DNA from: an uncultured bacterium
GTDB taxonomy: Bacteria; Chlamydiota; Chlamydiia; Chlamydiales; SM23-39
Direction of reading: 5' to 3'
Length of the DNA: 64,000 nucleotides
Assembly: GCA_964466185.1 (NCBI GenBank)
Contig: CAYXMS010000001.1
Coordinates: 2,284-66,283, forward strand
A model generated the notes under the pieces. It saw nothing but the letters and a program-made list of their open reading frames with translations, made no database searches and was not told where the DNA came from. This document shows, in pieces, positions 41,107 to 54,756 of the stretch; position 1 is the first letter of the stretch, and each line of letters begins with the position of its first letter. A program made the translations under genes and the position numbers.

Positions 41107-42387
41107 TTAAAAATCAAGCCTTGCAGTGATGGTCAAACCATGCATGAAGAAATCTTCAAGATCAGAATTAGATCTGGAATTAACCACTCCTGAAGTTCCT
41201 CTAGCAGAAAGTACCGTGCTGTTTAAAATTTGACTGGAAACTTTTCTCATATAATTCTGCTCAAAATAATAAATAAATTCATAGAGAGCTTTTACAGAGA
41301 AATGCCAGCTATTATCAGCAAAGTAAGTTCCCCATCCAAGACCTAGATTACCCTCTAAAACAGGGGTTATCTGGCTGTAGTCTTTATTGCCTAAACGGCT
41401 ATAATGATCAGAAAATTCAGCAGAGCTTTGCTTATAATCAACTGTAATACTTTGATAAGCTAAAGCACCGGCTACGTCTGCTTCCAAATCAAAACCGGCT
41501 CCCAATATCCATTGGCCGTCTAATCCGGTACGAGGACCCAGCAGCCAAGAATTGCTGTGAGCAATGCCCTTGATGAGTAGAAGAGAATCTTGAATTTTTC
41601 CAACAGTGGTAAAATCAAAATCAATCCAGCCACTAGTTAAACCAAAGAAAGGACGCATGGTTAAACAGGTGCTTTCATATAAAGGACGGGCAAATTCTAA
41701 ATTAAACATGTTGTATTTAGTTTCTAACTTGCCGGTTAAATGCATGAAAGGACCAGAAGTTGCATCTGTCGGAGTGTTGTGTTCTAAACTGGAATCTATC
41801 CATAAAGAAACTAGACGCTCTGGAAAATTGAGCCAAGAATATGTGCTTAAAGAAACAGAAGAACTGTTAGTTCCGGTTAAACGGACATACTCAATCATCA
41901 TTGTCCAATTGTCATGGGCTAAATTGGTGCCCAAAGCTAATTTAAAGCCAGGCTTATAATCGCTTTGGCTTACATTGTGTAGTTTGTATACACGATTTAC
42001 CGGAGGAGATACAGCATTGACATTGGTATTATAATCAGCCGGTCTGGTAATTGCATATTCCATACCCTTTAATTTAGGCAGCCAATAAATAAAGCTTCCT
42101 TTTATAAAAGCATCCCAGCTGTTCGTAACATCAATTCTAGCAGGAGCGTTATAAGCACTCATCATCTGATCTTCTTCGATGCTATAGCCTTGATCGTAAG
42201 GCGGTAGTTTTTCAGTATCAGTACATTCTTCTGTACTGTTATTATAAGAAATTGGCTCTTCGTTTAAACCGATTTCTTCTTGTTGTACAGAATTGGAAAA
42301 AATATCTTCCGAAACTTCATCTGCACTAACGTAAGATGCTGTTATTGCAAAAACAGCTATCAAAGAAAAAAACTTTAAAAGACGCAT
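41107..42387 (-). CDS. MOMP-like beta-barrel porin family, paralog 2
   Basis: 426 aa with the same motifs (PPYDQGYSIEEDQMMSAYNAPARIDV, FNLEFARP, SNSWLLGPR). C-terminus GLTITARLDF. Confidence 0.7.
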   Translation of the reverse strand: MRLLKFFSLIAVFAITASYVSADEVSEDIFSNSVQQEEIGLNEEPISYNNSTEECTDTEKLPPYDQGYSIEEDQMMSAYNAPARIDVTNSWDAFIKGSFIYWLPKLKGMEYAITRPADYNTNVNAVSPPVNRVYKLHNVSQSDYKPGFKLALGTNLAHDNWTMMIEYVRLTGTNSSSVSLSTYSWLNFPERLVSLWIDSSLEHNTPTDATSGPFMHLTGKLETKYNMFNLEFARPLYESTCLTMRPFFGLTSGWIDFDFTTVGKIQDSLLLIKGIAHSNSWLLGPRTGLDGQWILGAGFDLEADVAGALAYQSITVDYKQSSAEFSDHYSRLGNKDYSQITPVLEGNLGLGWGTYFADNSWHFSVKALYEFIYYFEQNYMRKVSSQILNSTVLSARGTSGVVNSRSNSDLEDFFMHGLTITARLDF

Positions 42388-42434
42388 GTGTTTTGATTCT
42401 CCATTTTTAACTTAAATTTTAATTATTAATATCA

Positions 42435-42463
42435 ACCATAAACATTTGCCCTAATTTTTTCAA
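42435..42463 (-). promoter_or_regulatory. putative promoter of porin paralog 2 (TTGAAA-17-TATGGT)
   Basis: The spacing was counted directly. The leader sequence is conserved with paralog 3 (…AAAATGGAGAAT(C/T)AAAACACATG). Confidence 0.45.
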
Positions 42464-42620
42464 CAGAACTTCTAATTTTATTTTTATTTTTTTTAAAATT
42501 AAAAGAAGTTTGGGAAAAATGGCTCTTAAAATTTGGTCGTTTTGAAAAAAATGAAAGCTGAAAACTATTAGGGAAAGTTGTGTTTATCAAATTGAAAAAA
42601 AAGAAAAGTAATAAACGCAG

Positions 42621-42660
42621 AAAAAGAAAAAGGCCAAGTTATTTAGACTTGGCCTTTTTC
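42621..42660 (-). terminator. rho-independent terminator after porin paralog 3
   Basis: AAAGGCCAAGT-TATTTAG-ACTTGGCCTTT hairpin followed by TTTTTCTTTTT on the minus strand. Confidence 0.75.
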
Positions 42661-42683
42661 AAAAAAATTCAAGTTCAAGACTG

Positions 42684-43967
42684 TTAGAAATCAAGTCTTG
42701 CAGTAATTGTTAATCCATGGATGAGTAAGTCCTCAGGCTTGGAATTAGATCTTGAGTTGACTGTACCAGCAGTTCCTACACTAGAAAGCACTGTGCTGTC
42801 CAAAATTTGGCCAGAAACTTTTCTCATGTAGTTTTGGTCAAAGTAGTACAAGAACTCATACAGAGTATGTAAAGAGAAATGCCAGCCGTTGTCAGCAAAG
42901 TAAGTTCCCCAGTTCATACCTATGTTACCTTCTAAAACAGGAGTGATTTGAGTGAATTTCTTGTAGTTAAACAGTCGTGAATAGTGAGTAGTAAAACTAT
43001 CAGAACGCTGCTTATAGTTAACTTTGATGCTTTGATAAGCTAAAGTTCCAGCAATATCACCTTCAATTGCAAAGCCATAGTCTAAAATCCAGTTGCCATC
43101 AACCCCGAAACGTGGGCCGATTAACCAAGAATTGCTATGAGACTTAGCTTGTAAAGTAAAAGTATCAGTTAAAATAGTACCAACTGTTGTAAAGCTTTGC
43201 TTAATCCAGCCGCCAGTTAAACCCATATGGGGACGGAAAGTTAAACAAGTACCTTCATAAAAAGGACGAGCAAATTCCATGTTCAACATGTCATATTTGC
43301 TTTTTAGCTTGCCGGTCAATTTAGTAAATTGTCCTTGGCTGCTAGCTGTATCTAAAGTATTGTGCTCTAAATGGGAATCCATCCATAAAGAAATTAAACG
43401 CTCTGGATAAGTTGTATAATCTCCAGTGCTTTGAACTGTAGATGAATGGTTGTCGCCATGTAAACGCACATACTTGACTAAAGCAGTCCAGTTGTCATGG
43501 GCTAAATTAGTAGCTAGGGCAATTTTAAAACCAGATTTATAGTTCTGATCTACATCATGTAACTTATAAGTATAGTCAATGGCCTCATTAGTAGTATTGA
43601 AATCTGCTGGTCTAGTAATTGCATATTCCATACCTTTTAATTTAGCCAGCCAATAAATGTAACTTGCTCTGATGCTAACATCCCAAGAGCCGGTAACATC
43701 AATTCTAGCAGGAGCGTTATAAGCGCTCATCATCTGGTCTTCTTCAATGCTGTATCCCTGGTCATAGGGAGGCATTTCTTCTGTATTGGTATCAGCACGC
43801 TCGTCGGCGGCACTGTGATAAGTAATTGGCTCATTATTAAGACCAATTTCTTCTTCTTGTAAAGCATTTGAAGGAACAATTTCTGGTTCAGGAGCTTCAT
43901 CTGCTTTTAAATATGTTACTGCTAAAACGCCAACAGCAACTAAGGAAAAAAACTTAAACAAACGCAT
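42684..43967 (-). CDS. MOMP-like beta-barrel porin family, paralog 3 (closest to paralog 2)
   Basis: 427 aa, roughly two-thirds identical to paralog 2 by eye. It contains the identical block PPYDQGYSIEEDQMMSAYNAPARIDV and ends GLTITARLDF. Confidence 0.7.
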   Translation of the reverse strand: MRLFKFFSLVAVGVLAVTYLKADEAPEPEIVPSNALQEEEIGLNNEPITYHSAADERADTNTEEMPPYDQGYSIEEDQMMSAYNAPARIDVTGSWDVSIRASYIYWLAKLKGMEYAITRPADFNTTNEAIDYTYKLHDVDQNYKSGFKIALATNLAHDNWTALVKYVRLHGDNHSSTVQSTGDYTTYPERLISLWMDSHLEHNTLDTASSQGQFTKLTGKLKSKYDMLNMEFARPFYEGTCLTFRPHMGLTGGWIKQSFTTVGTILTDTFTLQAKSHSNSWLIGPRFGVDGNWILDYGFAIEGDIAGTLAYQSIKVNYKQRSDSFTTHYSRLFNYKKFTQITPVLEGNIGMNWGTYFADNGWHFSLHTLYEFLYYFDQNYMRKVSGQILDSTVLSSVGTAGTVNSRSNSKPEDLLIHGLTITARLDF

Positions 43968-44012
43968 GTGTTTTAATTCTCCATTTTGACTTTAATTTTT
44001 CAATTAACATCA

Positions 44013-44041
44013 AACATAACCGTTTACAAGAATTTTTTCAA
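44013..44041 (-). promoter_or_regulatory. putative promoter of porin paralog 3 (TTGAAA-17-TATGTT)
   Basis: The spacing was counted directly, and the block is conserved with the paralog 2 upstream region. Confidence 0.45.
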
Positions 44042-44174
44042 CTACCTTGTTAAAAAAAATGTTTTTTAGAAAAAAAAGAAGAAAAAAACAATAGAGAAAA
44101 TCTAAATATAAAAAAAAAGACAAACAAAAATTATTCTGCTTGTCTTTAGACTTCAAAGAACGGTTTTTTATCAT

Positions 44175-44515
44175 TTACGCACCGTAAAACCCAGTCCTTT
44201 AGGGCTGGGATACAAGGTGCGAGTTAAAAAATGCGGGCTTTAATGCCGTTAAGGCCTCCGCCCGCTAGAGTAATCCACATCGAGATTGTTAGAAGGAGTT
44301 TTTGAACCTGCCACACTGAGAGTTTCCTCTCTGTTTAATGACAGATCACAGTTGCTACGGACTTGTGGAGCATCCGTAGGTGTGTATGTATCTCTTCCAA
44401 CTAACTGCTGCTTAAAGTTTCCTTTAAGCCCTCTAATCAACCAGTTTAAGGCCCACCGGCCTTTTCCCTTGTGCCTCACGGCTCAAGCCTCTCCCTTTAG
44501 GGAGGGGTGATTGAC
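44175..44515 (-). mobile_element. protein-less HEARO/omega-RNA-like element (copy 1; PATE/MITE-like IS200/605-IscB derivative)
   Basis: On the minus strand it starts GTCAATCACCCCTCCCTAAAGGGAGAGG, 6 nt after the porin TAA. About 290 nt are homologous to 54350-54075. Internal hairpins: CTTAAAG-GAAA-CTTTAAG, CTACGGA...TCCGTAG and GAGAG-GAAA-CTCTC. It has a terminator at 44265-44225 and a distal hairpin at 44221-44178 with the same CC(C)TAAAGG apex as the 5' hairpin. Confidence 0.65.
44225..44265 (-). terminator. terminator closing the copy-1 RNA (GCGGGC...GCCCGC + ATTTTTT)
   Basis: A 6-bp GC stem (44265-44260 / 44238-44233) followed by a T-run on the minus strand. Confidence 0.6.
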
Positions 44516-44521
44516 ACTAAA

Positions 44522-45580
44522 TTAAAAATCCAGTCTAAAAGAAAAAGTGAATCCATGCAGCATAAGATCTCCGGCAGAAGGAGCTGATAAGTTAGTAATT
44601 TCTTCTTCTAACGATTTCATCATGTTTTGATTGAAAAAAACTAAAAAATCATAGCCGGCTGAAATGTCTAAGTGCAAACGGTCCTGCCATAAGTAAGAAC
44701 CCCAAGCAAAACCAACTCCTATTTCCCAATCGGAATTAATATATCCTTTATTATATTTGGACAAATTAATCAGATAGGTAGACAAAGGGTCTAAATATTC
44801 TTTGGCGCTGACTTGAAAATCCTGATAAAATAAAGCAGCTGCCAGATTAACGAAAAATCTAAATCCCTCATCCAGCATCCAATTGCTATTTAAACCAATG
44901 CGCGGACCAATCAGCCAGGCAGATTCTTCTTCGTTAATGGCATATTTTGATCCGGAAGAAGTATAAATATCATTATCTGAATTTTGTTTTATCCAGGCGG
45001 CTTTTAATCCAAAGAAAGGAGAGAAAATTAATTGGGTTCCATAGTAAAAAGGACGGGATATAATCAAATCCAGCATATCTAGATTCAATTTCCAGCCGCT
45101 GGACAGTTTGTCTGGATTGACTAAATCTCCAACTGAGGCCATATCATGCAGAGTATAAAAATTAAATGGATCAGTATCAACCTTGGATCGTTCCGAATGC
45201 TGAGAGCGGTGTAAAAATGTATAATCTAGTTGAGCAATCCAATTGTCTATGCCTAAATTAGAACCAAGGATTAGCTTGAAACCAGGTTTGTAATCAAAGT
45301 CCATATGCACAATTTTAGCGGGATTTCCAGCCGGATCAGAGGGAGTAGTATATGCCAGATCCAAACCCTGTTCTATTGCCTGCCATACAATACAAGCCCC
45401 TGTAAAATAAAAGTCCCAGTTTTCTTTTACATCATATCTGGCAGGAGAATTGTAGCTGTTTAAAATTTGATTCGGTTCAATTTCATAGCCCTGATTAAAG
45501 ACTTCTTCATCAAGAGCAAAAAGAGGAAGGCAAAAAATAAGAGGTAAAAGAAAAACTGTTTTTATTTTTGGTTTGAACAT
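44522..45580 (-). CDS. MOMP-like beta-barrel porin family, paralog 4
   Basis: 352 aa. Motifs: NQGYEIEPNQILNSYNSPARYDV, LDLIISRP and AWLIGPR. C-terminus GFTFSFRLDF. Confidence 0.7.
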   Translation of the reverse strand: MFKPKIKTVFLLPLIFCLPLFALDEEVFNQGYEIEPNQILNSYNSPARYDVKENWDFYFTGACIVWQAIEQGLDLAYTTPSDPAGNPAKIVHMDFDYKPGFKLILGSNLGIDNWIAQLDYTFLHRSQHSERSKVDTDPFNFYTLHDMASVGDLVNPDKLSSGWKLNLDMLDLIISRPFYYGTQLIFSPFFGLKAAWIKQNSDNDIYTSSGSKYAINEEESAWLIGPRIGLNSNWMLDEGFRFFVNLAAALFYQDFQVSAKEYLDPLSTYLINLSKYNKGYINSDWEIGVGFAWGSYLWQDRLHLDISAGYDFLVFFNQNMMKSLEEEITNLSAPSAGDLMLHGFTFSFRLDF

Positions 45581-45711
45581 TTTGTTCTCCGTTTTTTTTG
45601 TATATCTTTGGCCAATACTAAAATATTTGATACATATTTAAAAATAAAAAATAGAAGGGAAAAGGAAAATTATCAAGCAAAAAGAAAAAAATAAGATGCA
45701 AATTTTTCGAG

Positions 45712-45750
45712 ATAAAAAAAGCCGGAAGAAAATTTTTTCCTTCCGGCTTA
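45712..45750 (-). terminator. rho-independent terminator after porin paralog 5
   Basis: AGCCGGAAG...CTTCCGGCT hairpin followed by a T-run on the minus strand. Confidence 0.75.
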
Positions 45751-45771
45751 AGAAAAGATCAATTGCTTAAG

Positions 45772-46920
45772 TTAGAAACTAAAAGTTACTTTAAAGTTTC
45801 CACCGTGCAGGTATAAATCAGGTGCTGAAGTGTTTCTCAGCATGTTAAAATATCCTGCTAGCATGTTTTGATTCCAATACACGTTGAATACATAGCTTAG
45901 AGCTAAATCAACATGCCAGTCACGATCAGAGAAATACTTGCCCCAGCTGAAACCGATTTCAGTTTCTAAAGCAGGTCTTAAATAATCTGCCTTATCTCTG
46001 ATATCATATGTGCTGGATCCGTTTAATACGTCTGCTTGATACGTTTTGTTATGCTTATCTAATTTATAGTGCGTATGCAGAACCATAGCGGTTAAATCGC
46101 TAAGCATGCTAAATCCGCATCCCCAGTTCCATTTGCTATTTAAGCTAAACTTAGGGCCAATGCCGAAAGCGTTAGACTTAACTGATATTGGAAGAAGATT
46201 AGAAGAAGTATTAGCATGGTAATATCTCCAATTACCGGATAGTTTTTGCTTTAGCCAAGCAGCTCTTAAACCTATGATAGGCTTTAAGATTAACTTCTCA
46301 CCATTATAAAAGTGGCGAGTTAAGTTTAAATCTACAAAGTCCATGTCAAGTTTCCATTTGCTTTTGATATTTAAACCATAATAAAGGTTAATATCATTAA
46401 TGGAAGAACTGCACAAAGTACTTAAAGATAAGTATTTGTTATTAGCAGGGTCAGCATCGGCTTTTTTGCTGGATGAATCTTTAAAATGGAAATATTCTGA
46501 ATATAAAGACCATTTATCTCTTTCAATATCCCATCCGGCACGGAGTTTAAAGCCGAATTCCCAATCAAACTCATTGGTTACAAGACCAATAGTTCTATAA
46601 TGAGAATTCATAAGCTCTACTCTTTCAGCCAGCTGCATGCCTTCTTGCAGGGGATGTAAATATAACGCATTGCCGCCGACAAAGAATCCCCAGCCGTCAG
46701 CAACATCAATTCTACCAGGAGCATTATAGCCTTTCATCAGCTGATATGGCTCTATACCATAACCCGGACTATAACCTTCCTGTTTTTGGTTTTTTTCCTT
46801 TCTTAGCTGCTGTCTTCCATTATTGCCCTTGACGGTACCTGCAGAAAAGCTGGTACTCAGAGCTAAAGCAGCTAATAAGGTTGATAAAATAAAAAATTTT
46901 GTTTTCATTTTTTTCCTCAT
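45772..46920 (-). CDS. MOMP-like beta-barrel porin family, paralog 5 (divergent)
   Basis: 382 aa. Motifs: SPGYGIEPYQLMKGYNAPGRIDV and FVDLNLTRHFYNG. C-terminus GGNFKVTFSF. Confidence 0.65.
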   Translation of the reverse strand: MRKKMKTKFFILSTLLAALALSTSFSAGTVKGNNGRQQLRKEKNQKQEGYSPGYGIEPYQLMKGYNAPGRIDVADGWGFFVGGNALYLHPLQEGMQLAERVELMNSHYRTIGLVTNEFDWEFGFKLRAGWDIERDKWSLYSEYFHFKDSSSKKADADPANNKYLSLSTLCSSSINDINLYYGLNIKSKWKLDMDFVDLNLTRHFYNGEKLILKPIIGLRAAWLKQKLSGNWRYYHANTSSNLLPISVKSNAFGIGPKFSLNSKWNWGCGFSMLSDLTAMVLHTHYKLDKHNKTYQADVLNGSSTYDIRDKADYLRPALETEIGFSWGKYFSDRDWHVDLALSYVFNVYWNQNMLAGYFNMLRNTSAPDLYLHGGNFKVTFSF

Positions 46921-47280
46921 ACTGTGTTGATAGCTTATACCTTTTATAAGGTTTTTTTCTTTTGGATAACAAAAAAAATTTACTATGGCAACTATTTTTT
47001 TTAAAAAAGAGGGAAAACTTTTTTAAAATGAGACTTTTAAGTTCTTTTTTAGGCTTTTTTTAAGAAGTTGGTCTTTTTAAGTTAATAAAATTGTTTGTTT
47101 GTTTAAGAAGCTTTTATTTAAATGGTTATGTTTTGTATTTAACAAAAGAATAAATTGTTGAAAAATAAAAACCAGCCCTTTTTTGTTTAGTTAAAAAAAA
47201 TAAAAAATATTTTTTATTTGAAGAAATATTTTCAGGAAAATTCTTAAAAATAAGAAATAAAAGAATAGATGCCAGTTTTT

Positions 47281-48339
47281 TTAGAAAACAACGGCCAGCT
47301 TAAAACTTAAGCCATGAAGGGTTAAATCCCCATGTTTTCCATTAGTATTTAATCTGACTAAATCATCTATGCTTCTTAAAACATTTTGCTCCCAAAAACG
47401 CTGCATTTCATAGCCTAGCAGCAGCTCTAAATGCCAACTGCGATTATTGAAATAAGAGCTCCAACCCAGACCCCCTCCAATTTGCATGTTGGGAATTAAA
47501 AAAGAAGGACTATTTTTAAAAGAACTGTTATTGGCCGGGTTATCGCGGTCTGCTATATTATAGGTTACATCATGCTTTTGATAGAATAAAGAAGCCAGGC
47601 TTTCTGCATAAACCTTTAATCCATAAGGAAGTAAAAAATTAAGATGGCAATTGATCTTGGGCCCAATCAACCAGTTGTCGTCTTCTGTTTTCACTGTTAC
47701 TATATTATCATCTATAATGTAGTGTCTGATTTCAATCTCTTGGCTATTCAAAGCTGATCTAAGGCCGAATCCTGCATTTAATGTCAGCTGCATGCCCGAA
47801 TAAAAAGGCCTGGATGCCCATAGATCCAAATAATTTAAATGTAAATACCGGTTGGCTGAAATTTTTTCGTTGTCGGCAGTTGAATCATTGTAAATCCATA
47901 AAGGAGTGGCTAAAACTTCTGTAGAATTAAAAGAGGCTTCATCATCGGCATACAAACGTGTATACTGGAAAGCAATTTTCCAATCATCAAAATCTGAATT
48001 ATAAGTTGCTCCCAGTTTGAATCCGGGAGTATAGTCAGGTTCAAATTTAACCAGATGAGTCCGGTTGCCAGCATCTGCGTAGCTGCCAATATTCAAACCT
48101 TCTTCTAAAGCCTGCCATAGGATAAAAGAACCGGTTACTTCTACATCGAAGGCTTCTTTGACATTATATCTGGCCGGAGTATTATAAATGCCTACCATTT
48201 GACTTTCTTCAATTCCATGCCCTTGTTTAATATAGGAAGTCTCTTGATTGGAAAGTGTGGAATCAGATTCTGTTTGCGAAAAAACAAAAGAGGTAAGACA
48301 AAGGCAAACAGCAAAAATAGATTTAAAAAATTTAGCCAC
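47281..48339 (-). CDS. MOMP-like beta-barrel porin family, paralog 6 (divergent)
   Basis: 352 aa with a GTG start preceded by GGGAG. Motifs: KQGHGIEESQMVGIYNTPARYNV, LDLWASRP and NWLIGPK. C-terminus GLSFKLAVVF. Confidence 0.65.
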   Translation of the reverse strand: MAKFFKSIFAVCLCLTSFVFSQTESDSTLSNQETSYIKQGHGIEESQMVGIYNTPARYNVKEAFDVEVTGSFILWQALEEGLNIGSYADAGNRTHLVKFEPDYTPGFKLGATYNSDFDDWKIAFQYTRLYADDEASFNSTEVLATPLWIYNDSTADNEKISANRYLHLNYLDLWASRPFYSGMQLTLNAGFGLRSALNSQEIEIRHYIIDDNIVTVKTEDDNWLIGPKINCHLNFLLPYGLKVYAESLASLFYQKHDVTYNIADRDNPANNSSFKNSPSFLIPNMQIGGGLGWSSYFNNRSWHLELLLGYEMQRFWEQNVLRSIDDLVRLNTNGKHGDLTLHGLSFKLAVVF

Positions 48340-48775
48340 GGTTTTTTCTCCCGTTATTTTATTTTAACTAATTTAATAAAATAAGATTTTTAAAGATATT
48401 TTTCAATTCGTCTTTTTTGATTAGCCTAAGTCTGTAAAAGAACTACGTTAGAAAGGCCATGATATTTTAGGATGCGCCTTAAGTCTTGCGAAAATTGCGA
48501 GTCCCTTGCCTTGTCGTTAGTGGTTAAAAGTTCTAAAAGATAGGAGCGGTGCTGCTACCTTAAAAAGTCTTTTCAATATTGGCGACAAGGAATTTGCTGG
48601 TTTTTAGGTGCCATGGCGGTTTTATTTTAGCTATCGGAAAACTCTGAGTTTTTTAACTTAAATGGAGGAGCGGAATTTCCTCCTCATGTCTAAAGACAGC
48701 GGTATCCATGCTGTTATTTTTTTGATGAAATATTCTTTGTTTTCAGGCATATAAAAAAAAAGATGGAATAAGGAT

Positions 48776-52158: not shown

Positions 52159-53553
52159 CTAAGAATTGCAGTTAATGTGAAAAATAGCTTTATAAAACTC
52201 TTCCGAACCTTCCCAAACCATTTCCGGCTTAGATAAAATTTTAGGATCCTGTTGCAAGGCCGTATGGATTTTCCTGGCTAAAATGGGATTTTGAATTTTA
52301 AAAACCACTTCTATTTTGGCCAGATAAGGGGCTTGTAAATTTCCTATTTTAGGCAAAGATACAAGTTCGTATTGAAAACTAGTAATTTCTACCTGGTTTT
52401 GGGGAATCAGCGGATGAGAAGAGAGCCAATGTAAAACATAGCTGGCCTTGAGAGGTTTTTTGCTGAAAGGATTGGCTTTTTGATGTCTTAATTCAAATAA
52501 ATTATGATTTAGTTCCTCAAGGGTTTTGGGCGGCGGAGAAAAGAGCAAAGCACCATTTTTCAGCAGTTTTTGTTTTTTTTCAAAAAGCAATTTTTCTCCT
52601 TGCCAGACAATTACGCCTGATAGAGTAAGTAAAAAGGCAATGGCGGCAGTTAAAACCTTGTGTTTTTTCTTCCAGATTCTTTCAGGAAAAAATTCCAAGT
52701 CGCGGAACTGCATAAATTTTTTTTCTGTAGTTTCTAAAGCAGCTCCTATTGGAATTGCAAAAATGCTTTTCTCTGTTTCTGTTTCCAGTAAAGAAGAAAT
52801 ATTTTTTTTGTTTTTAGAAGAGATTAACAAATCTATGTGTTTTAACAGGTGCTTGTTGCCGGTTAAAAGCAAAGGCAGTTTTTCTTGCTTTGCAAAAAAA
52901 TCCAGGGTTTGGCTGATTTGTTGGTTTAATTCTTCTAACAGCTGTTTTTTGTCCCGCCCCAGTTTTTCGATGCTTTGTTCTTCTTTTTGACTGATGGCAT
53001 TTATACCTATATGAATGTTATATCCGGCTTTTAAGGTTTTGTCTTTGATCTTTAAACAAACAGTTTCTTCTTCGGCAAAATGCATGATCAATAAATCCGT
53101 GTTTTGAGGAAAGAAAACTCTAGCAAACCGAAACAGCGCTTGCTGGGAAGATACCGCCATATGAGGATCTATTTTTTTTAGAAAAAAACCTAAATGTTTT
53201 TTTTTAATAATCTGAAAAGAAAAAAAAGCTTTTTTGTTAGAGATTTTTTGAATTTTGGCGGCAACTGCAGTTTCGTCTTTAGGTAAAATTGTTACGATTT
53301 CTTTTTGCAAGTTAAGGTTTTTTTGTAAAAAACGTTGGCTAATTTTTTGAGCCTCTACATTTTTAATAAAAACTTGCTGAGGGGGTAAAACCCCGGCTGA
53401 AAAATTTTTTTTACAATACTTGTCAAGCTGCTTTACATCGTTTTTCAAAGTCTTTTTAAGCTTTAAAATCTTACCTTTTTCTGAAATTTCAGCTATTAAA
53501 GCTTTGTCTTTTTCTAGAAAAATACCCAATCTGTTCATGAAAAATGACAGCAT
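52159..53553 (-). CDS. hypothetical bitopic membrane protein, PilM/GspL-like organisation
   Basis: Cytoplasmic N-domain of about 310 aa, one TM (VLTAAIAFLLTLSGVIVW), and a C-terminal domain of about 130 aa. The track start at 53637 is a TTG; in-frame ATGs lie at 53553 and 53538. The function is inferred from topology only. Confidence 0.4.
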   Translation of the reverse strand: MLSFFMNRLGIFLEKDKALIAEISEKGKILKLKKTLKNDVKQLDKYCKKNFSAGVLPPQQVFIKNVEAQKISQRFLQKNLNLQKEIVTILPKDETAVAAKIQKISNKKAFFSFQIIKKKHLGFFLKKIDPHMAVSSQQALFRFARVFFPQNTDLLIMHFAEEETVCLKIKDKTLKAGYNIHIGINAISQKEEQSIEKLGRDKKQLLEELNQQISQTLDFFAKQEKLPLLLTGNKHLLKHIDLLISSKNKKNISSLLETETEKSIFAIPIGAALETTEKKFMQFRDLEFFPERIWKKKHKVLTAAIAFLLTLSGVIVWQGEKLLFEKKQKLLKNGALLFSPPPKTLEELNHNLFELRHQKANPFSKKPLKASYVLHWLSSHPLIPQNQVEITSFQYELVSLPKIGNLQAPYLAKIEVVFKIQNPILARKIHTALQQDPKILSKPEMVWEGSEEFYKAIFHINCNS

Positions 53554-54272
53554 GGCAACCAACTTCTTGCGCTGTTGGAAAAAATGCCGCCCCTCCGTTC
53601 GGTTAAAAATGTTTTTACGGTTTCTAATAAAATACAATCTGCAGCTTTTGCAGAAGCGTGTATTTTTAGATTATTTAATTTTCTAAGATCAAAATAACTA
53701 GTTTTTCTTTTTCCAAAAATAAAGCATTCAATTCCATTAAATAATACTTTATCAAACTTTTGAAAATCGCTAATAAACCGGGAGGCGGTATTTTTGATAT
53801 GAGAAGTTAGTTTATGTTGAATGGATGGAGCAAGCCAACCCTTTTTTTTATTTCCACGCTTTAAGAACCCGTCTTTTCTATACCATGTTTTGCGAGATCT
53901 TCTAGCTCTTCGATATTGTTTTCTTTCTGCCTTTAGTTTAACCATATCAGTTCTTAATTGAAATTCTGAGGTATAGACCTCTCTGGTTTCTGCGATAGCA
54001 GATGCCCCAATATATGAATATCCGCTATTAATACCTAATAATACAGGATAAATAATAGATACAATCGTGTTCTGTTCCGCCTGTCTTGTAGTAGTTAGAG
54101 TCGCATCGGGATTGTTGGAAAAGGTTTTTAAATGAGCCACACCGACTCTTTCTTTCAGGTTTTTAAATGGCTGATCACAGTTAAGCCAATGGCTTTTGCT
54201 AGGAACTTGCGAACAGCCCCTGGCTGAAATATTCGTAGGTGTGTATGTATTTTTTTTAACTAACTTTTGCAT
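53535..54272 (-). CDS. IscB/IsrB-family (RRXRR) protein, internally deleted and catalytically dead (or pseudogene remnant)
   Basis: LLGINSGYSYIGASAI matches RuvC-I with the catalytic Asp replaced by Asn. KAERKQYRRARRSRKTWYRKDGFLKRGNKKKGWLAPSIQHKL matches the bridge helix/RRXRR segment. FDKVLFNGIECFIFGKRKTSYFDLRKLNNLKIHASAKAADCILLETVKTFLTERRGG matches the IscB C-terminal domain. RuvC-II, HNH and RuvC-III are absent. An AAGGAG SD lies 6 nt before the ATG. Confidence 0.65.
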   Translation of the reverse strand: MQKLVKKNTYTPTNISARGCSQVPSKSHWLNCDQPFKNLKERVGVAHLKTFSNNPDATLTTTRQAEQNTIVSIIYPVLLGINSGYSYIGASAIAETREVYTSEFQLRTDMVKLKAERKQYRRARRSRKTWYRKDGFLKRGNKKKGWLAPSIQHKLTSHIKNTASRFISDFQKFDKVLFNGIECFIFGKRKTSYFDLRKLNNLKIHASAKAADCILLETVKTFLTERRGGIFSNSARSWLPCCHFS

Positions 54273-54350
54273 ATAACGCTCCTTATTCAGCCAGTTTAAG
54301 ATCCGCTGGTCTTTTTCTATGGAGGGCCTTCCTTTAGATAGGGGTGATTG
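54075..54350 (-). ncRNA. omega-RNA/HEARO-like scaffold (copy 2), overlapping the 5' part of the IscB-like ORF
   Basis: On the minus strand it starts CAATCACCCCTATCTAAAGGAAGG at 54350. It is homologous to copy 1 over about 275 nt. Shared stem: CTACGAA...TTCCTAG here versus CTACGGA...TCCGTAG in copy 1. Expression is not shown. Confidence 0.5.
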
Positions 54351-54448
54351 TCGGTATTTTAGACCCTATAAAATATAGTTACGCAGCTCAAAAACAGGGG
54401 TATTTTAGATATAAGGGCAATTAGATAAAAGAGTTTGCTTAAAAAAAA

Positions 54449-54498
54449 TCTGGAAATAAGTTAAAATTTAAATTCTGGAAATAAGTTAAAGTTTAAAT
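54449..54498. repeat. 25-bp tandem direct repeat x2 (TCTGGAAATAAGTTAAA(A/G)TTTAAAT)
   Basis: Read directly, with one mismatch between units. It lies between the omega-RNA-like 5' end and the yggT start. Confidence 0.9.
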
Positions 54499-54507
54499 AA
54501 AAATTTT

Positions 54508-54756
54508 ATGTTGCTTAATTTATTAAATTTATTGTTTACCGTTTATACCCTGCTTTTACTAGGCCGTATTATAGGTTCCTGGTTTATGGGCTATAGTAAT
54601 AATCCCGTCTGGATTTTTATTTGTAGGTATACCGATCCTTATTTAAATATTTTTCGGAGGTTTATTCCTCCTTTGGGCAATTTTGATATCAGTCCGCTAG
54701 TAGCTTTTTTTGTTCTCAAATTTCTGCAAAGCTTTTTAATCAATATTTTACGATGA
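54508..54756 (+). CDS. yggT: YggT-family small membrane protein
   Basis: 82 aa. LLLGRIIGSWF...NPVWIFICRYTDPYLNIFRRFIPPLGNFDISPLVAFFVL matches the YGGT pattern. Confidence 0.8.
   Translation: MLLNLLNLLFTVYTLLLLGRIIGSWFMGYSNNPVWIFICRYTDPYLNIFRRFIPPLGNFDISPLVAFFVLKFLQSFLINILR

Follow-up and report, generated by a model that had tools for sequence, protein, structure and literature searches.

The 245-aa ORF located on the minus strand between positions 53535 and 54272 of the window (the whole 64-kb stretch of DNA analyzed), together with its leader, is best explained as an IscB/omega-RNA insertion sequence of the HEARO type (IS200/IS605 superfamily), non-autonomous and decaying in place, a reading to which we assign a probability of about 70%. 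The remnant is unable to cleave DNA, is most likely unable to assemble an IscB-omega-RNA complex, and most likely represents a genomic fossil rather than a new RNA-guided regulator.

IscB homology of the 245-aa ORF

The ORF and its segments are as follows (all on the minus strand):

53535..54272: 245-aa ORF, IscB-derived, with a Pfam RRXRR match
ORF residues 1 to ~70: segment encoded by omega-RNA sequence
ORF residues 76-156: RuvC-I and bridge helix
ORF residues 157-227: C-terminal domain
ORF residues 228-245: read-through tail
54027..54029: AAT codon (Asn82) where the family alignment has the catalytic RuvC-I Asp

The protein matched Pfam RRXRR (PF14239) over residues 74-162 (E 1.7e-22), indicating homology to the RuvC-I segment and the Arg-rich bridge helix, and matched part of the NCBIfam guided_IscB profile (NF040563; positions 43-139 of 314) with a score of 79 bits, below the curated equivalog cut-off of 175 bits. 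These matches bear out the relationship to IscB proposed in the original prediction. The replacement of the RuvC-I Asp by Asn, also predicted, was confirmed: the Asn of LLGINSG aligned both with a column in which 99% of 103 full-length homologues have Asp and with the LGIDPG Asp of OgeuIscB, and the codon at this position began with G in all nine outgroup sequences (9/9). The C-terminal IscB domain was likewise recognized correctly, its 70 residues being 89% identical to the C-termini of full-length IscB proteins.

The absence of RuvC-II, HNH and RuvC-III was also as predicted. The profile search gave no match to the HNH family PF01844, and tblastn detected this region in none of the six frames. 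The tblastn HSPs at the locus all shared a single frame and skipped approximately residues 196-320 of the IscB queries; the middle of IscB is therefore truly gone, with no part of it hidden in another frame. The RuvC active site is incomplete, through the Asp to Asn change and the deletion of the RuvC-II and RuvC-III segments. One loss had been overlooked, that of the N-terminal PLMP domain, amounting to 47 codons with respect to L066 and all full-length homologues. We considered the possibility that the N-terminal 70 residues were a spurious extension introduced by the ORF caller, and withdrew it because, in 40 of 57 relatives, some of which have in-frame loop insertions, an open frame likewise runs from this ATG into IscB.

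The AlphaFold2 (AF2) model of the protein had a pTM of 0.34, with pLDDT values below 50 at residues 1-67, predicted to be disordered, and 227-244, and above 90 in the C-terminal beta domain. Of the RuvC fold, just three strands are left. A Foldseek search with this model returned no significant global match. The best match in the PDB was to an IsrB, DtIsrB (8dmb; E 0.011), with a TM-score of only 0.18. IsrB is a natural nickase without HNH, and the locus resembles it in this respect and in this best, though weak, structural match. However, the RuvC fold of IsrB is complete and its omega-RNA functional, whereas the locus lacks RuvC-II and RuvC-III, and its junctions indicate a recent loss from an HNH-containing IscB.

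Deletion junctions

The junctions were defined by comparison with L066, a full-length relative of 408 aa, to which the two retained blocks are 86.6% and 88.5% identical at the nucleotide level (both on the minus strand):

54045..54050: junction of deletion 1, between TAT and CCT; 141 nt (47 codons, PLMP domain) gone with respect to L066
53791..53801: junction of deletion 2, CATATCAAAAA; 603 nt (201 codons, RuvC-II, HNH and RuvC-III) gone with respect to L066

Deletion 2 is flanked by imperfect 11-nt direct repeats, CCATAT(C/T)AAAA, both copies of which are visible in L066, and the blastn blocks of L066 and the locus overlap by 10 nt at this junction. Because SHIK (Ser-His-Ile-Lys) is encoded by both repeats in one and the same frame, the 603-nt deletion necessarily preserves the reading frame. 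The remnant contains four indels (the two deletions and two 15-nt insertions), each a multiple of three, and its frame stays open. The intact frame had been read as a sign of purposeful retention; a microhomology deletion between in-frame SHIK repeats explains it instead. If the indels were independent and random, an open frame across two deletions and two 15-nt insertions would be expected about once in 80 cases, which is a counterpoint to decay. These odds are weakened by the large deletion being in frame by mechanism and by the occurrence of in-frame loop insertions in intact relatives as well. We infer that the open frame reflects recent decay and the microhomology mechanism rather than selection.

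A stretch of 17 nt at the deletion junction (53787-53803) resembles a segment upstream of the guide (54399-54415). The resemblance raised the possibility of a self-target but was set aside as probably due to chance, about 0.6 such 15-of-17 pairs being expected, by manual estimate, in 1.2 kb of AT-rich sequence.

The omega-RNA leader and the guide position

The leader contains the following features (all on the minus strand):

54094..54352: degenerate scaffold of the omega-RNA (HEARO), containing two 15-nt insertions (Rfam HEARO and family alignment)
54270..54284: AAGGAG (54284-54279) and ATG (54272-54270), a conserved omega-RNA block that also opens the ORF
54353..54368: flank directly 5' of the scaffold, TAGGGTCTAAAATACC, at the guide position of intact family members

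A HEARO-like leader had been proposed for this locus, and such a segment is present, but in a degraded form. The Rfam HEARO model (RF02033) matched positions 54094-54350 of the minus strand with 25.8 bits (local E 0.0056), below the gathering threshold of 83 bits; scores of 93-125 bits were obtained in nine relatives and of 119 bits for a neighbouring solo copy in the window, at 44270-44515. The locus omega-RNA keeps 34 of the 46 conserved pairs of the clade consensus structure, the lowest number among 35 sequences; nearly all the copies linked to IscB keep at least 40 of 46, and two diverged copies keep 37-38. Three of the seven pairs in the helix adjoining the guide are broken. The family alignment places the start of the scaffold (GTCAAT in the family, GACAAT here) at 54352. 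The AAGGAG motif and ATG had been taken for a strong Shine-Dalgarno (SD) sequence and start codon, and for a sign of retention. They are omega-RNA scaffold sequence conserved across the family, the consensus around this block being GACAAGGAGGCAUAA..AUGCAGAAGUUAG.

The sequence at the guide position is the flank of the insertion site, as in every mobile copy. The putative guide had been put forward as a means of finding targets, but the 18-mer at this position had no match other than itself in the 64-kb window with up to three mismatches.

These results bear directly on the second reading offered in the original prediction, according to which the locus would encode a domesticated nuclease-dead RNA-guided DNA binder, an IscB analogue of TldR directed by the omega-RNA-like leader. 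The ORF is intact, its catalytic Asp is replaced by Asn, the bridge helix and the C-terminal domain on the side of the target-adjacent motif (TAM) are kept, and the niche is open, since TldR appears in a 2026 review of OMEGA systems without any counterpart derived from IscB. Like TldRs, the locus derives from a transposon RNA-guided nuclease, with a mutated catalytic residue, truncation and an adjoining host gene. However, TldRs show no apparent degradation of the remaining TnpB fold or of the RNA-binding interface, keep their guide-RNA scaffold, form conserved clades and have guides matching host promoters (TldR preprint). At the locus, three RuvC strands are left, PLMP is gone, 12 of the 46 conserved omega-RNA pairs are missing, no second match to the guide position occurs within the 64-kb window, the protein belongs to no clade and is missing from the roughly 30 syntenic Chlamydiota loci described below, and constraint against nonsynonymous change is loosened even at invariant positions. 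We therefore consider a TldR-like function extremely unlikely.

Other copies in the window

Two further HEARO matches were found in the window, at 44270-44515 (minus strand, 119 bits) and 48376-48597 (plus strand, 59.7 bits). These two short elements, each consisting of an omega-RNA and an end and both eroded, lie within 10 kb of the locus. The original prediction of a segment shared with two other loci was correct as to these matches, but the three copies in the window are not copies of each other, their similarity being limited to 69-71% over two short blocks. No full-length IscB was detected within the 64 kb by tblastn, and the ORF lists contained no tnpA candidate near the locus. The lack of tnpA had been predicted, together with the immobility of the unit; the first stands for the surroundings of the locus, but has little bearing on the second, because most IscB elements have no adjacent tnpA (Meers et al., preprint).

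The locus might alternatively be a still-mobilizable PATE-like miniature, moved in trans by TnpA/IscB encoded elsewhere in the genome. Both its ends are recognizable, its TAM is intact, the two short omega-RNA-plus-end elements lie nearby, and PATEs derived from IscB/TnpB elements have been described (Meers et al., preprint). However, the mutual dissimilarity of the window copies, the end hairpin and omega-RNA of the locus, which are the most degraded of the set, the lack of a full-length IscB or tnpA candidate noted above, and the lack of a second copy of this architecture in the databases searched make mobility of this kind very improbable. PATEs and other internally deleted IS200/IS605 derivatives, like the IS pseudogenes of host-restricted bacteria, resemble the locus in their internal deletions, the conservation of both ends and the presence of several eroded copies in the region. 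PATEs, however, carry no protein-coding gene (Meers et al., preprint), whereas the locus has an open frame of 245 codons.

The element end and the host gene

The features at the iscB-distal end of the element are as follows (all on the minus strand):

53568..53570: GCA codon replacing the ancestral TAA stop (alignment with L066/L001)
53545..53590: weakened terminal hairpin at the iscB-distal end; L066, L073 and L094 have a homologous nested hairpin
53534..53538: ATGAA, the TAM at the element end and native start of the host gene; homology to L066 stops here
52159..53538: host gene, encoding a 459-aa membrane protein with no Pfam family, conserved in Chlamydiota and divergent from yggT-dus

The claim that there is no right-end hairpin was inaccurate. 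The inner stems of the homologous hairpin covary among L066, L073 and L094; part of the stem has been lost at the locus, where the DNA fold z-score is +0.19, versus -2.56 in L066. Following the change from TAA to GCA, the ORF runs for a further 11 codons, to a TGA (53537-53535) at the element end that overlaps the host ATG (53538-53536), so that the predicted ATGA overlap at 53538-53535 is indeed present. It is not a sign of domestication, as had been suggested, because the TAM of these elements, ATGAA, sits at host start codons throughout the family: family-wide, the elements are bordered on the right by ATGA(A) and then a host ORF, and the IscB stop overlaps the host ATG in 32 of 75 family elements. 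The TAM of GstIscB is TTCAT (Meers et al., preprint), of which ATGAA is the reverse complement.

The N-terminus of the host protein (MNRLGIFLEKD) aligns with the MEFIGIQKES of its orthologues. Synteny of the membrane-protein gene with yggT was found by tblastn at about 30 Chlamydiota loci, none of which had an IscB sequence between the two genes; the comparison of orthologous loci revealed no retained ORF. The gap between the two genes was 50-95 bp in seven of the eight relatives in which it could be measured and about 450 bp in L045. As the orthologous intergenic region is short and the element abuts the host ATG, the native promoter and SD sequence have been displaced by about 0.8 kb. The 15 nt preceding the ATG at 53538 contained no SD-like motif, and consensus scans for promoters and terminators gave counts at or near shuffle expectation. 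Exact-sequence look-ups of the 245-aa ORF and the downstream gene returned no match, a Dus scan of genome contigs returned just distant Chlamydiota (no more than 50% amino-acid identity), and the sole return for yggT was a 100% identical contig from the same strain, beginning inside the remnant.

Relaxed constraint and the open frame

No other sequence shares the architecture of the 245-aa protein among 5.8 billion proteins, in which it forms a singleton cluster, and no homologues with the same deletion junctions were found in the databases searched. Polarized substitutions numbered 18 nonsynonymous to 3 synonymous on the locus branch, versus 5 to 6 on the L066 branch (Fisher p = 0.035), and, in columns at least 90% conserved, six deviations were unique to the locus copy and one to L066. 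The pairwise dN/dS of the ORF with respect to L066 was 0.16-0.26, implying that most of the divergence from L066 accrued under purifying selection. This ratio is a counterpoint to decay, as is the C-terminal (TAM-side) domain, in which 67 of 71 residues are identical to those of L066 (4/71 changed). Such decay is frequent in the family, in which frameshifted or deleted copies account for about 10 of 80 loci.

The remnant might be decaying with its reading frame, rather than its protein, under selection, the host gene being transcribed through it and its translation coupled at the ATGA. Only in-frame erosion would then be tolerated, because nonsense or frameshift mutations would be polar on the membrane-protein gene. 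Several observations are consistent with this possibility: the element abuts the host ATG, which is not preceded by an SD-like motif and from which the native upstream signals would have been separated; four of four indels are multiples of three; the mutation of the native stop made the ORF end in an ATGA that overlaps the host start exactly, and could be adaptive; missense change is relaxed, yet the ORF contains no stops, which 5.6% of random substitutions would create; the stop overlap recurs in 32 of 75 family elements; and in L065, another eroded copy, three deletions are in frame and an ATGA again overlaps a host ORF. However, with no more than 20 neutral substitutions the frame would remain open by chance about one third of the time, the mechanism of the large deletion itself keeps it in frame, the frameshifted copies L102, L111 and L127 also lie upstream of host ORFs, and the IscB stop of the closest intact relative lies 35 nt before the host ATG, indicating that coupling is not obligatory. 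On balance, selection on the frame appears unlikely.

Discussion

The decay of an IS200/605-IscB element, the first of the two readings originally offered, is upheld by the deletion junctions, the state of the omega-RNA, the stop codon and the hairpin, the excess of nonsynonymous changes, the singleton status of the protein and the insert-free synteny of the relatives. We propose that the element, now 814 bp long, inserted, in this lineage alone, at an ATGAA motif with which a membrane-protein gene conserved in Chlamydiota begins, within the short intergenic region separating that gene from the divergent yggT-dus. Slippage or illegitimate recombination between the 11-nt direct repeats would then account for the loss of the 603 nt encoding RuvC-II, HNH and RuvC-III. 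The 141 nt encoding the PLMP domain have also been lost, the RuvC-I Asp has turned to Asn, and the native start and stop codons have disappeared. In the omega-RNA, a quarter of the conserved pairs are broken and two 15-nt insertions have been gained, and the stem of the terminal hairpin is partly lost. The homology, the junctions, the degradation of the RNA and hairpin, the relaxed constraint and the presence in this lineage alone have been demonstrated; the product of the ORF is probably without function.

The closest known systems are the IscB/omega-RNA insertion sequences of the ISGst5 type (Geobacillus stearothermophilus). The locus shares with them the RRXRR/RuvC-I segment, bridge helix and C-terminal domain, an omega-RNA upstream of the ORF and overlapping its 5' end, a variable flank at the guide position, a recognizable though weakened terminal hairpin, an end abutting ATGAA and the lack of an adjacent tnpA. 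It differs from them in lacking PLMP, RuvC-II, HNH and RuvC-III, in having Asn for Asp, in the degradation of its omega-RNA and hairpin, and in the loss of its native start and stop.

An IscB-derived nuclease-dead RNA-guided regulator would, if real, be the first of its kind; the evidence presented here argues against it and removes a false lead. The locus provides instead a well-resolved case of IscB erosion, in which the microhomology deletion, the decay of the omega-RNA and the decay of the end are all visible. With ATGAA as its TAM, this IscB clade habitually sits precisely at the start codons of host genes. It is conceivable, but rather unlikely, that the host gene now depends on transcription and translation through the remnant, a form of "expression addiction" imposed by IscB elements with a start-codon TAM (ATGAA). 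Insertions at start codons raise the question of whether host genes are made dependent on read-through from the element.

Homology of the short ORF

The original prediction described the locus correctly in substance. Residues 74-162 of the ORF correspond to positions 49-137 of the 174 in the Pfam RRXRR profile (PF14239; E 1.7e-22), the Asn of its LLGINSG motif falls on the catalytic Asp of OgeuIscB LGIDPG, and an Rfam HEARO match lies at the leader. The match to the NCBIfam IscB equivalog was partial (79 bits; cut-off, 175). In a comparison with solved structures, residues 75-131 and 133-160 aligned with OgeuIscB residues 53-111 and 148-175, respectively. The middle of the protein (RuvC-II, HNH and RuvC-III), already reported as absent, was not detected in any frame by tblastn with nine IscB queries. 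The usual internal start region of the IscB family, NMSVSAVYVLN, reads NTIVSIIY in the window copy.

ORF and HEARO matches in the window (Rfam HEARO gathering score, 83)
53535..54272, minus strand: ORF of 245 aa, confirmed
54094-54350, minus strand: leader of the ORF, 25.8 bits
44270-44515, minus strand: solo omega-RNA, 119 bits
48376-48597, plus strand: third element, 59.7 bits

Deletions and erosion of the element

The metagenome contig L066 (same locus as the relative L001) encodes a full-length IscB of 408 aa, with 86.6% and 88.5% nucleotide identity to the first and second blocks retained in the window. At the junction of the large deletion, the two L066-matching blocks share a 10-nt overlap: L066 carries CCATATCAAAA (…HKLD-SHIK-IIE…) and CCATATTAAAA (…GIR-SHIK-NTA…), separated by 603 nt, and a single hybrid repeat copy, TCTCATATCAAAAATACC, replaces this pair in the window. 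Deletion between these direct repeats, both of which are in frame, takes out the 201 codons of RuvC-II, HNH and RuvC-III and necessarily preserves the frame. The PLMP domain was lost through another deletion, of 141 nt.

The native TAA stop has become GCA, and the frame extends 11 codons to a TGA at the element end. The nested terminal hairpin, which displays covariation among L066 and the related loci L073 and L094, is still homologous in the window copy, with its inner stem partly lost (z of the DNA fold, +0.19 versus -2.56 in L066). At columns conserved in at least 90% of 103 full-length homologues, six deviations (D>N, R>G, N>K, R>K twice and G>S) were unique to the window copy, versus one for L066. 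With substitutions polarised by nine outgroups, the nonsynonymous:synonymous ratio was 18:3 on the window branch and 5:6 on that of L066 (Fisher p = 0.035). Pairwise dN/dS was 0.16-0.26; these values and the branch counts fit a lengthy period of function and then a recent relaxation of constraint.

The predicted HEARO-like leader was recovered by Rfam, but below the gathering score, whereas nine relatives scored 93-125 bits. In an alignment of 33 IscB-linked family members and two similar window copies (RNAalifold consensus, 46 pairs), the leader kept 34 pairs, the lowest number in the alignment; nearly all IscB-linked omega-RNAs keep at least 40, and two diverged copies 37-38. Three of the seven pairs of its guide-adjacent scaffold-closing helix are broken, and it carries two 15-nt insertions.

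Other omega-RNA elements in the window

The solo omega-RNA at 44.3 kb (44175-44515, minus strand) lacks iscB and is near-intact in structure (44/46 clade pairs). It is followed by a nested hairpin, the core of which weakly matches the sequence right after the IscB stop in the relatives L073 and L120 (E 0.03 and 0.48), and then by ATGAT. It resembles a PATE-like mini-element and is flanked on both sides by Legionella_OMP/MOMP-like porin genes. The third element (48376-48740, plus strand) contains no IscB coding remnant, and its end segment (GGAGGAGCGGAATTTCCTCC…CTAAAG…CCATGCTGTTATTTTTTTGATGAAAT) is a clear homologue of the terminal hairpin and ATGAA of L066 and the ORF's element. At least five paralogous porin-like genes are clustered on the minus strand at 41107-48339 (the three scanned all match Pfam Legionella_OMP), and their intergenic regions hold two eroded omega-RNA elements. 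Between two porin genes, 45710-45846 gave weak matches below the Rfam thresholds, to a group II intron domain-5-like sequence (Plastid-petD, 29.5 bits, E 0.041) and SraC/RyeA (27.3 bits, E 0.39).

Locus history and the open frame

The order of the divergent membrane-protein gene and yggT-dus is conserved in about 30 Chlamydiota loci, none of which contained IscB sequence at this position. The flanking Dus was at most 50% identical to homologues from Simkaniaceae and other Chlamydiota MAGs, and retrieved no close sister genome from the collection searched. The divergent intergenic region measures 50-95 bp in seven of eight measurable relatives, about 450 bp in the eighth (L045) and about 970 bp in the window, where the element occupies 814 bp (54352-53539). 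The host protein N-terminus, MNRLGIFLEKD, aligns with MEFIGIQKES of the orthologues, so ATG 53538, which directly adjoins the element, is the native start. Outside the element, the intergenic region immediately upstream of yggT contains a tandem pair of 25-nt direct repeats with 92% identity (54445-54494). A separately assembled contig of this strain (Logan SRR7048224_12565) is 100% identical to 54223-58756 over 4534 nt; it ends within the omega-RNA-derived part of the ORF, a break that we suspect is due to this sequence being repeated in the genome.

The locus holds a decaying IscB/omega-RNA insertion sequence, a degenerate member of a known element type. This was the first of two readings originally offered (an IS200/605-IscB element in decay), and the deletions, omega-RNA degradation, stop loss, hairpin erosion and relaxed constraint support it. 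The two deletions and two 15-nt insertions have left the frame open, although a stop would result from 5.6% of random substitutions. This may reflect recent decay, as the probability of no stop is about 0.3 for 20 neutral substitutions; it may also follow from the large deletion being in frame by mechanism, and in-frame loop insertions are seen in intact relatives too. An open frame would also be expected if it were under selection, with nonsense or frameshift lesions polar on the downstream host gene, which the insertion deprived of its own upstream region and which now begins in an exact ATGA overlap made by loss of the native stop; we consider such selection rather unlikely. The second reading, a domesticated nuclease-dead RNA-guided binder analogous to TldRs, found no evidence at the level of a family: within a collection of 5.8 billion sequences it forms a cluster of its own, its junctions recur in no homologue, and the syntenic loci are devoid of IscB. 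Other short in-frame IscB derivatives (P0071/L065, P0005, P0055, P0006 and P0003) all differ in deletion end points, and an ORF-independent survey found about 10 of 80 family loci frameshifted, deleted or truncated. Among these derivatives, L065 (3917-4802) encodes an eroded IscB of 267 aa (P0071) that carries three in-frame deletions (PLMP, HNH and RuvC-III), with end points unlike those of the window copy. Its omega-RNA nevertheless reaches a full score (119 bits), and its iscB overlaps a host ORF of 194 codons at an ATGA.

The proposed guide search was unproductive, the guide-position 18-mer having no second match within the 64-kb window; in every mobile copy, this position is plain insertion-site flank. 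Structure prediction did not favour domestication either. In the AlphaFold2 model (85-sequence alignment; pTM 0.34), the bridge helix and three strands of RuvC-I reach moderate confidence, a small beta domain at the C-terminus has pLDDT >90, and residues 1-67 and 227-244 have pLDDT <50; the top PDB match of the model was IsrB, with a TM-score of only 0.18. Three strands cannot build an RNase-H-like RuvC core. TldRs, in contrast to this product and its eroded omega-RNA, show no apparent degradation of the remaining fold or RNA-binding interface, and the guide RNAs that they bind have defined scaffolds (Wiegand et al. preprint). The premise that no IscB equivalent is established was fair, as IscB-derived counterparts of TldR are missing from a 2026 OMEGA review, but the window copy does not fill this gap.

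Family traits and placement at start codons

The features read as purposeful retention are family traits. The strong Shine-Dalgarno sequence and start are present, but AAGGAG…ATG-CAA-AAG-TTA is the window version of a conserved omega-RNA scaffold block, GACAAGGAGGCAUAA…AUGCAGAAGUUAG. From the embedded ATG, an open frame leads into IscB in 40 of 57 relatives, so many database ‘proteins’ start MQKLxERNTYTPTD. In these relatives (L067-L140), the ATG follows AAGGAGG and the frame is open for about 65 codons; the corresponding stretch of the window is 54272-54060. In L071 and L103/L104, the frame stays open despite insertions in an omega-RNA variable loop. This pattern suggests that the N-terminal extension may be translated, or the frame otherwise constrained. 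The stop/start overlap is real but family-wide: 46 of the 75 family loci have a host ORF of substantial length that begins with ATGA, either at the IscB stop or shortly beyond it, and the stop overlaps this ATG in 32 of the 46. The missing tnpA is little indication of immobility, as IscB loci generally lack one (Meers et al., bioRxiv 10.1101/2023.03.14.532601).

Members of this IscB clade (metagenome relatives L065-L144) are placed exactly before host start codons, a position for which we found no published statement in the literature searched, and several omega-RNA-side flanks are Shine-Dalgarno-like by eye (e.g. CAAGGAGG, GGAGATAA and AGGAAATA). The TAM of GstIscB/ISGst5 has been determined experimentally as TTCAT (Meers et al., bioRxiv 10.1101/2023.03.14.532601). 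The constant family flank, ATGAA, is its reverse complement. ATGAA is also a very common beginning of bacterial genes, and elements with an ATGAA TAM would therefore often land at start codons.
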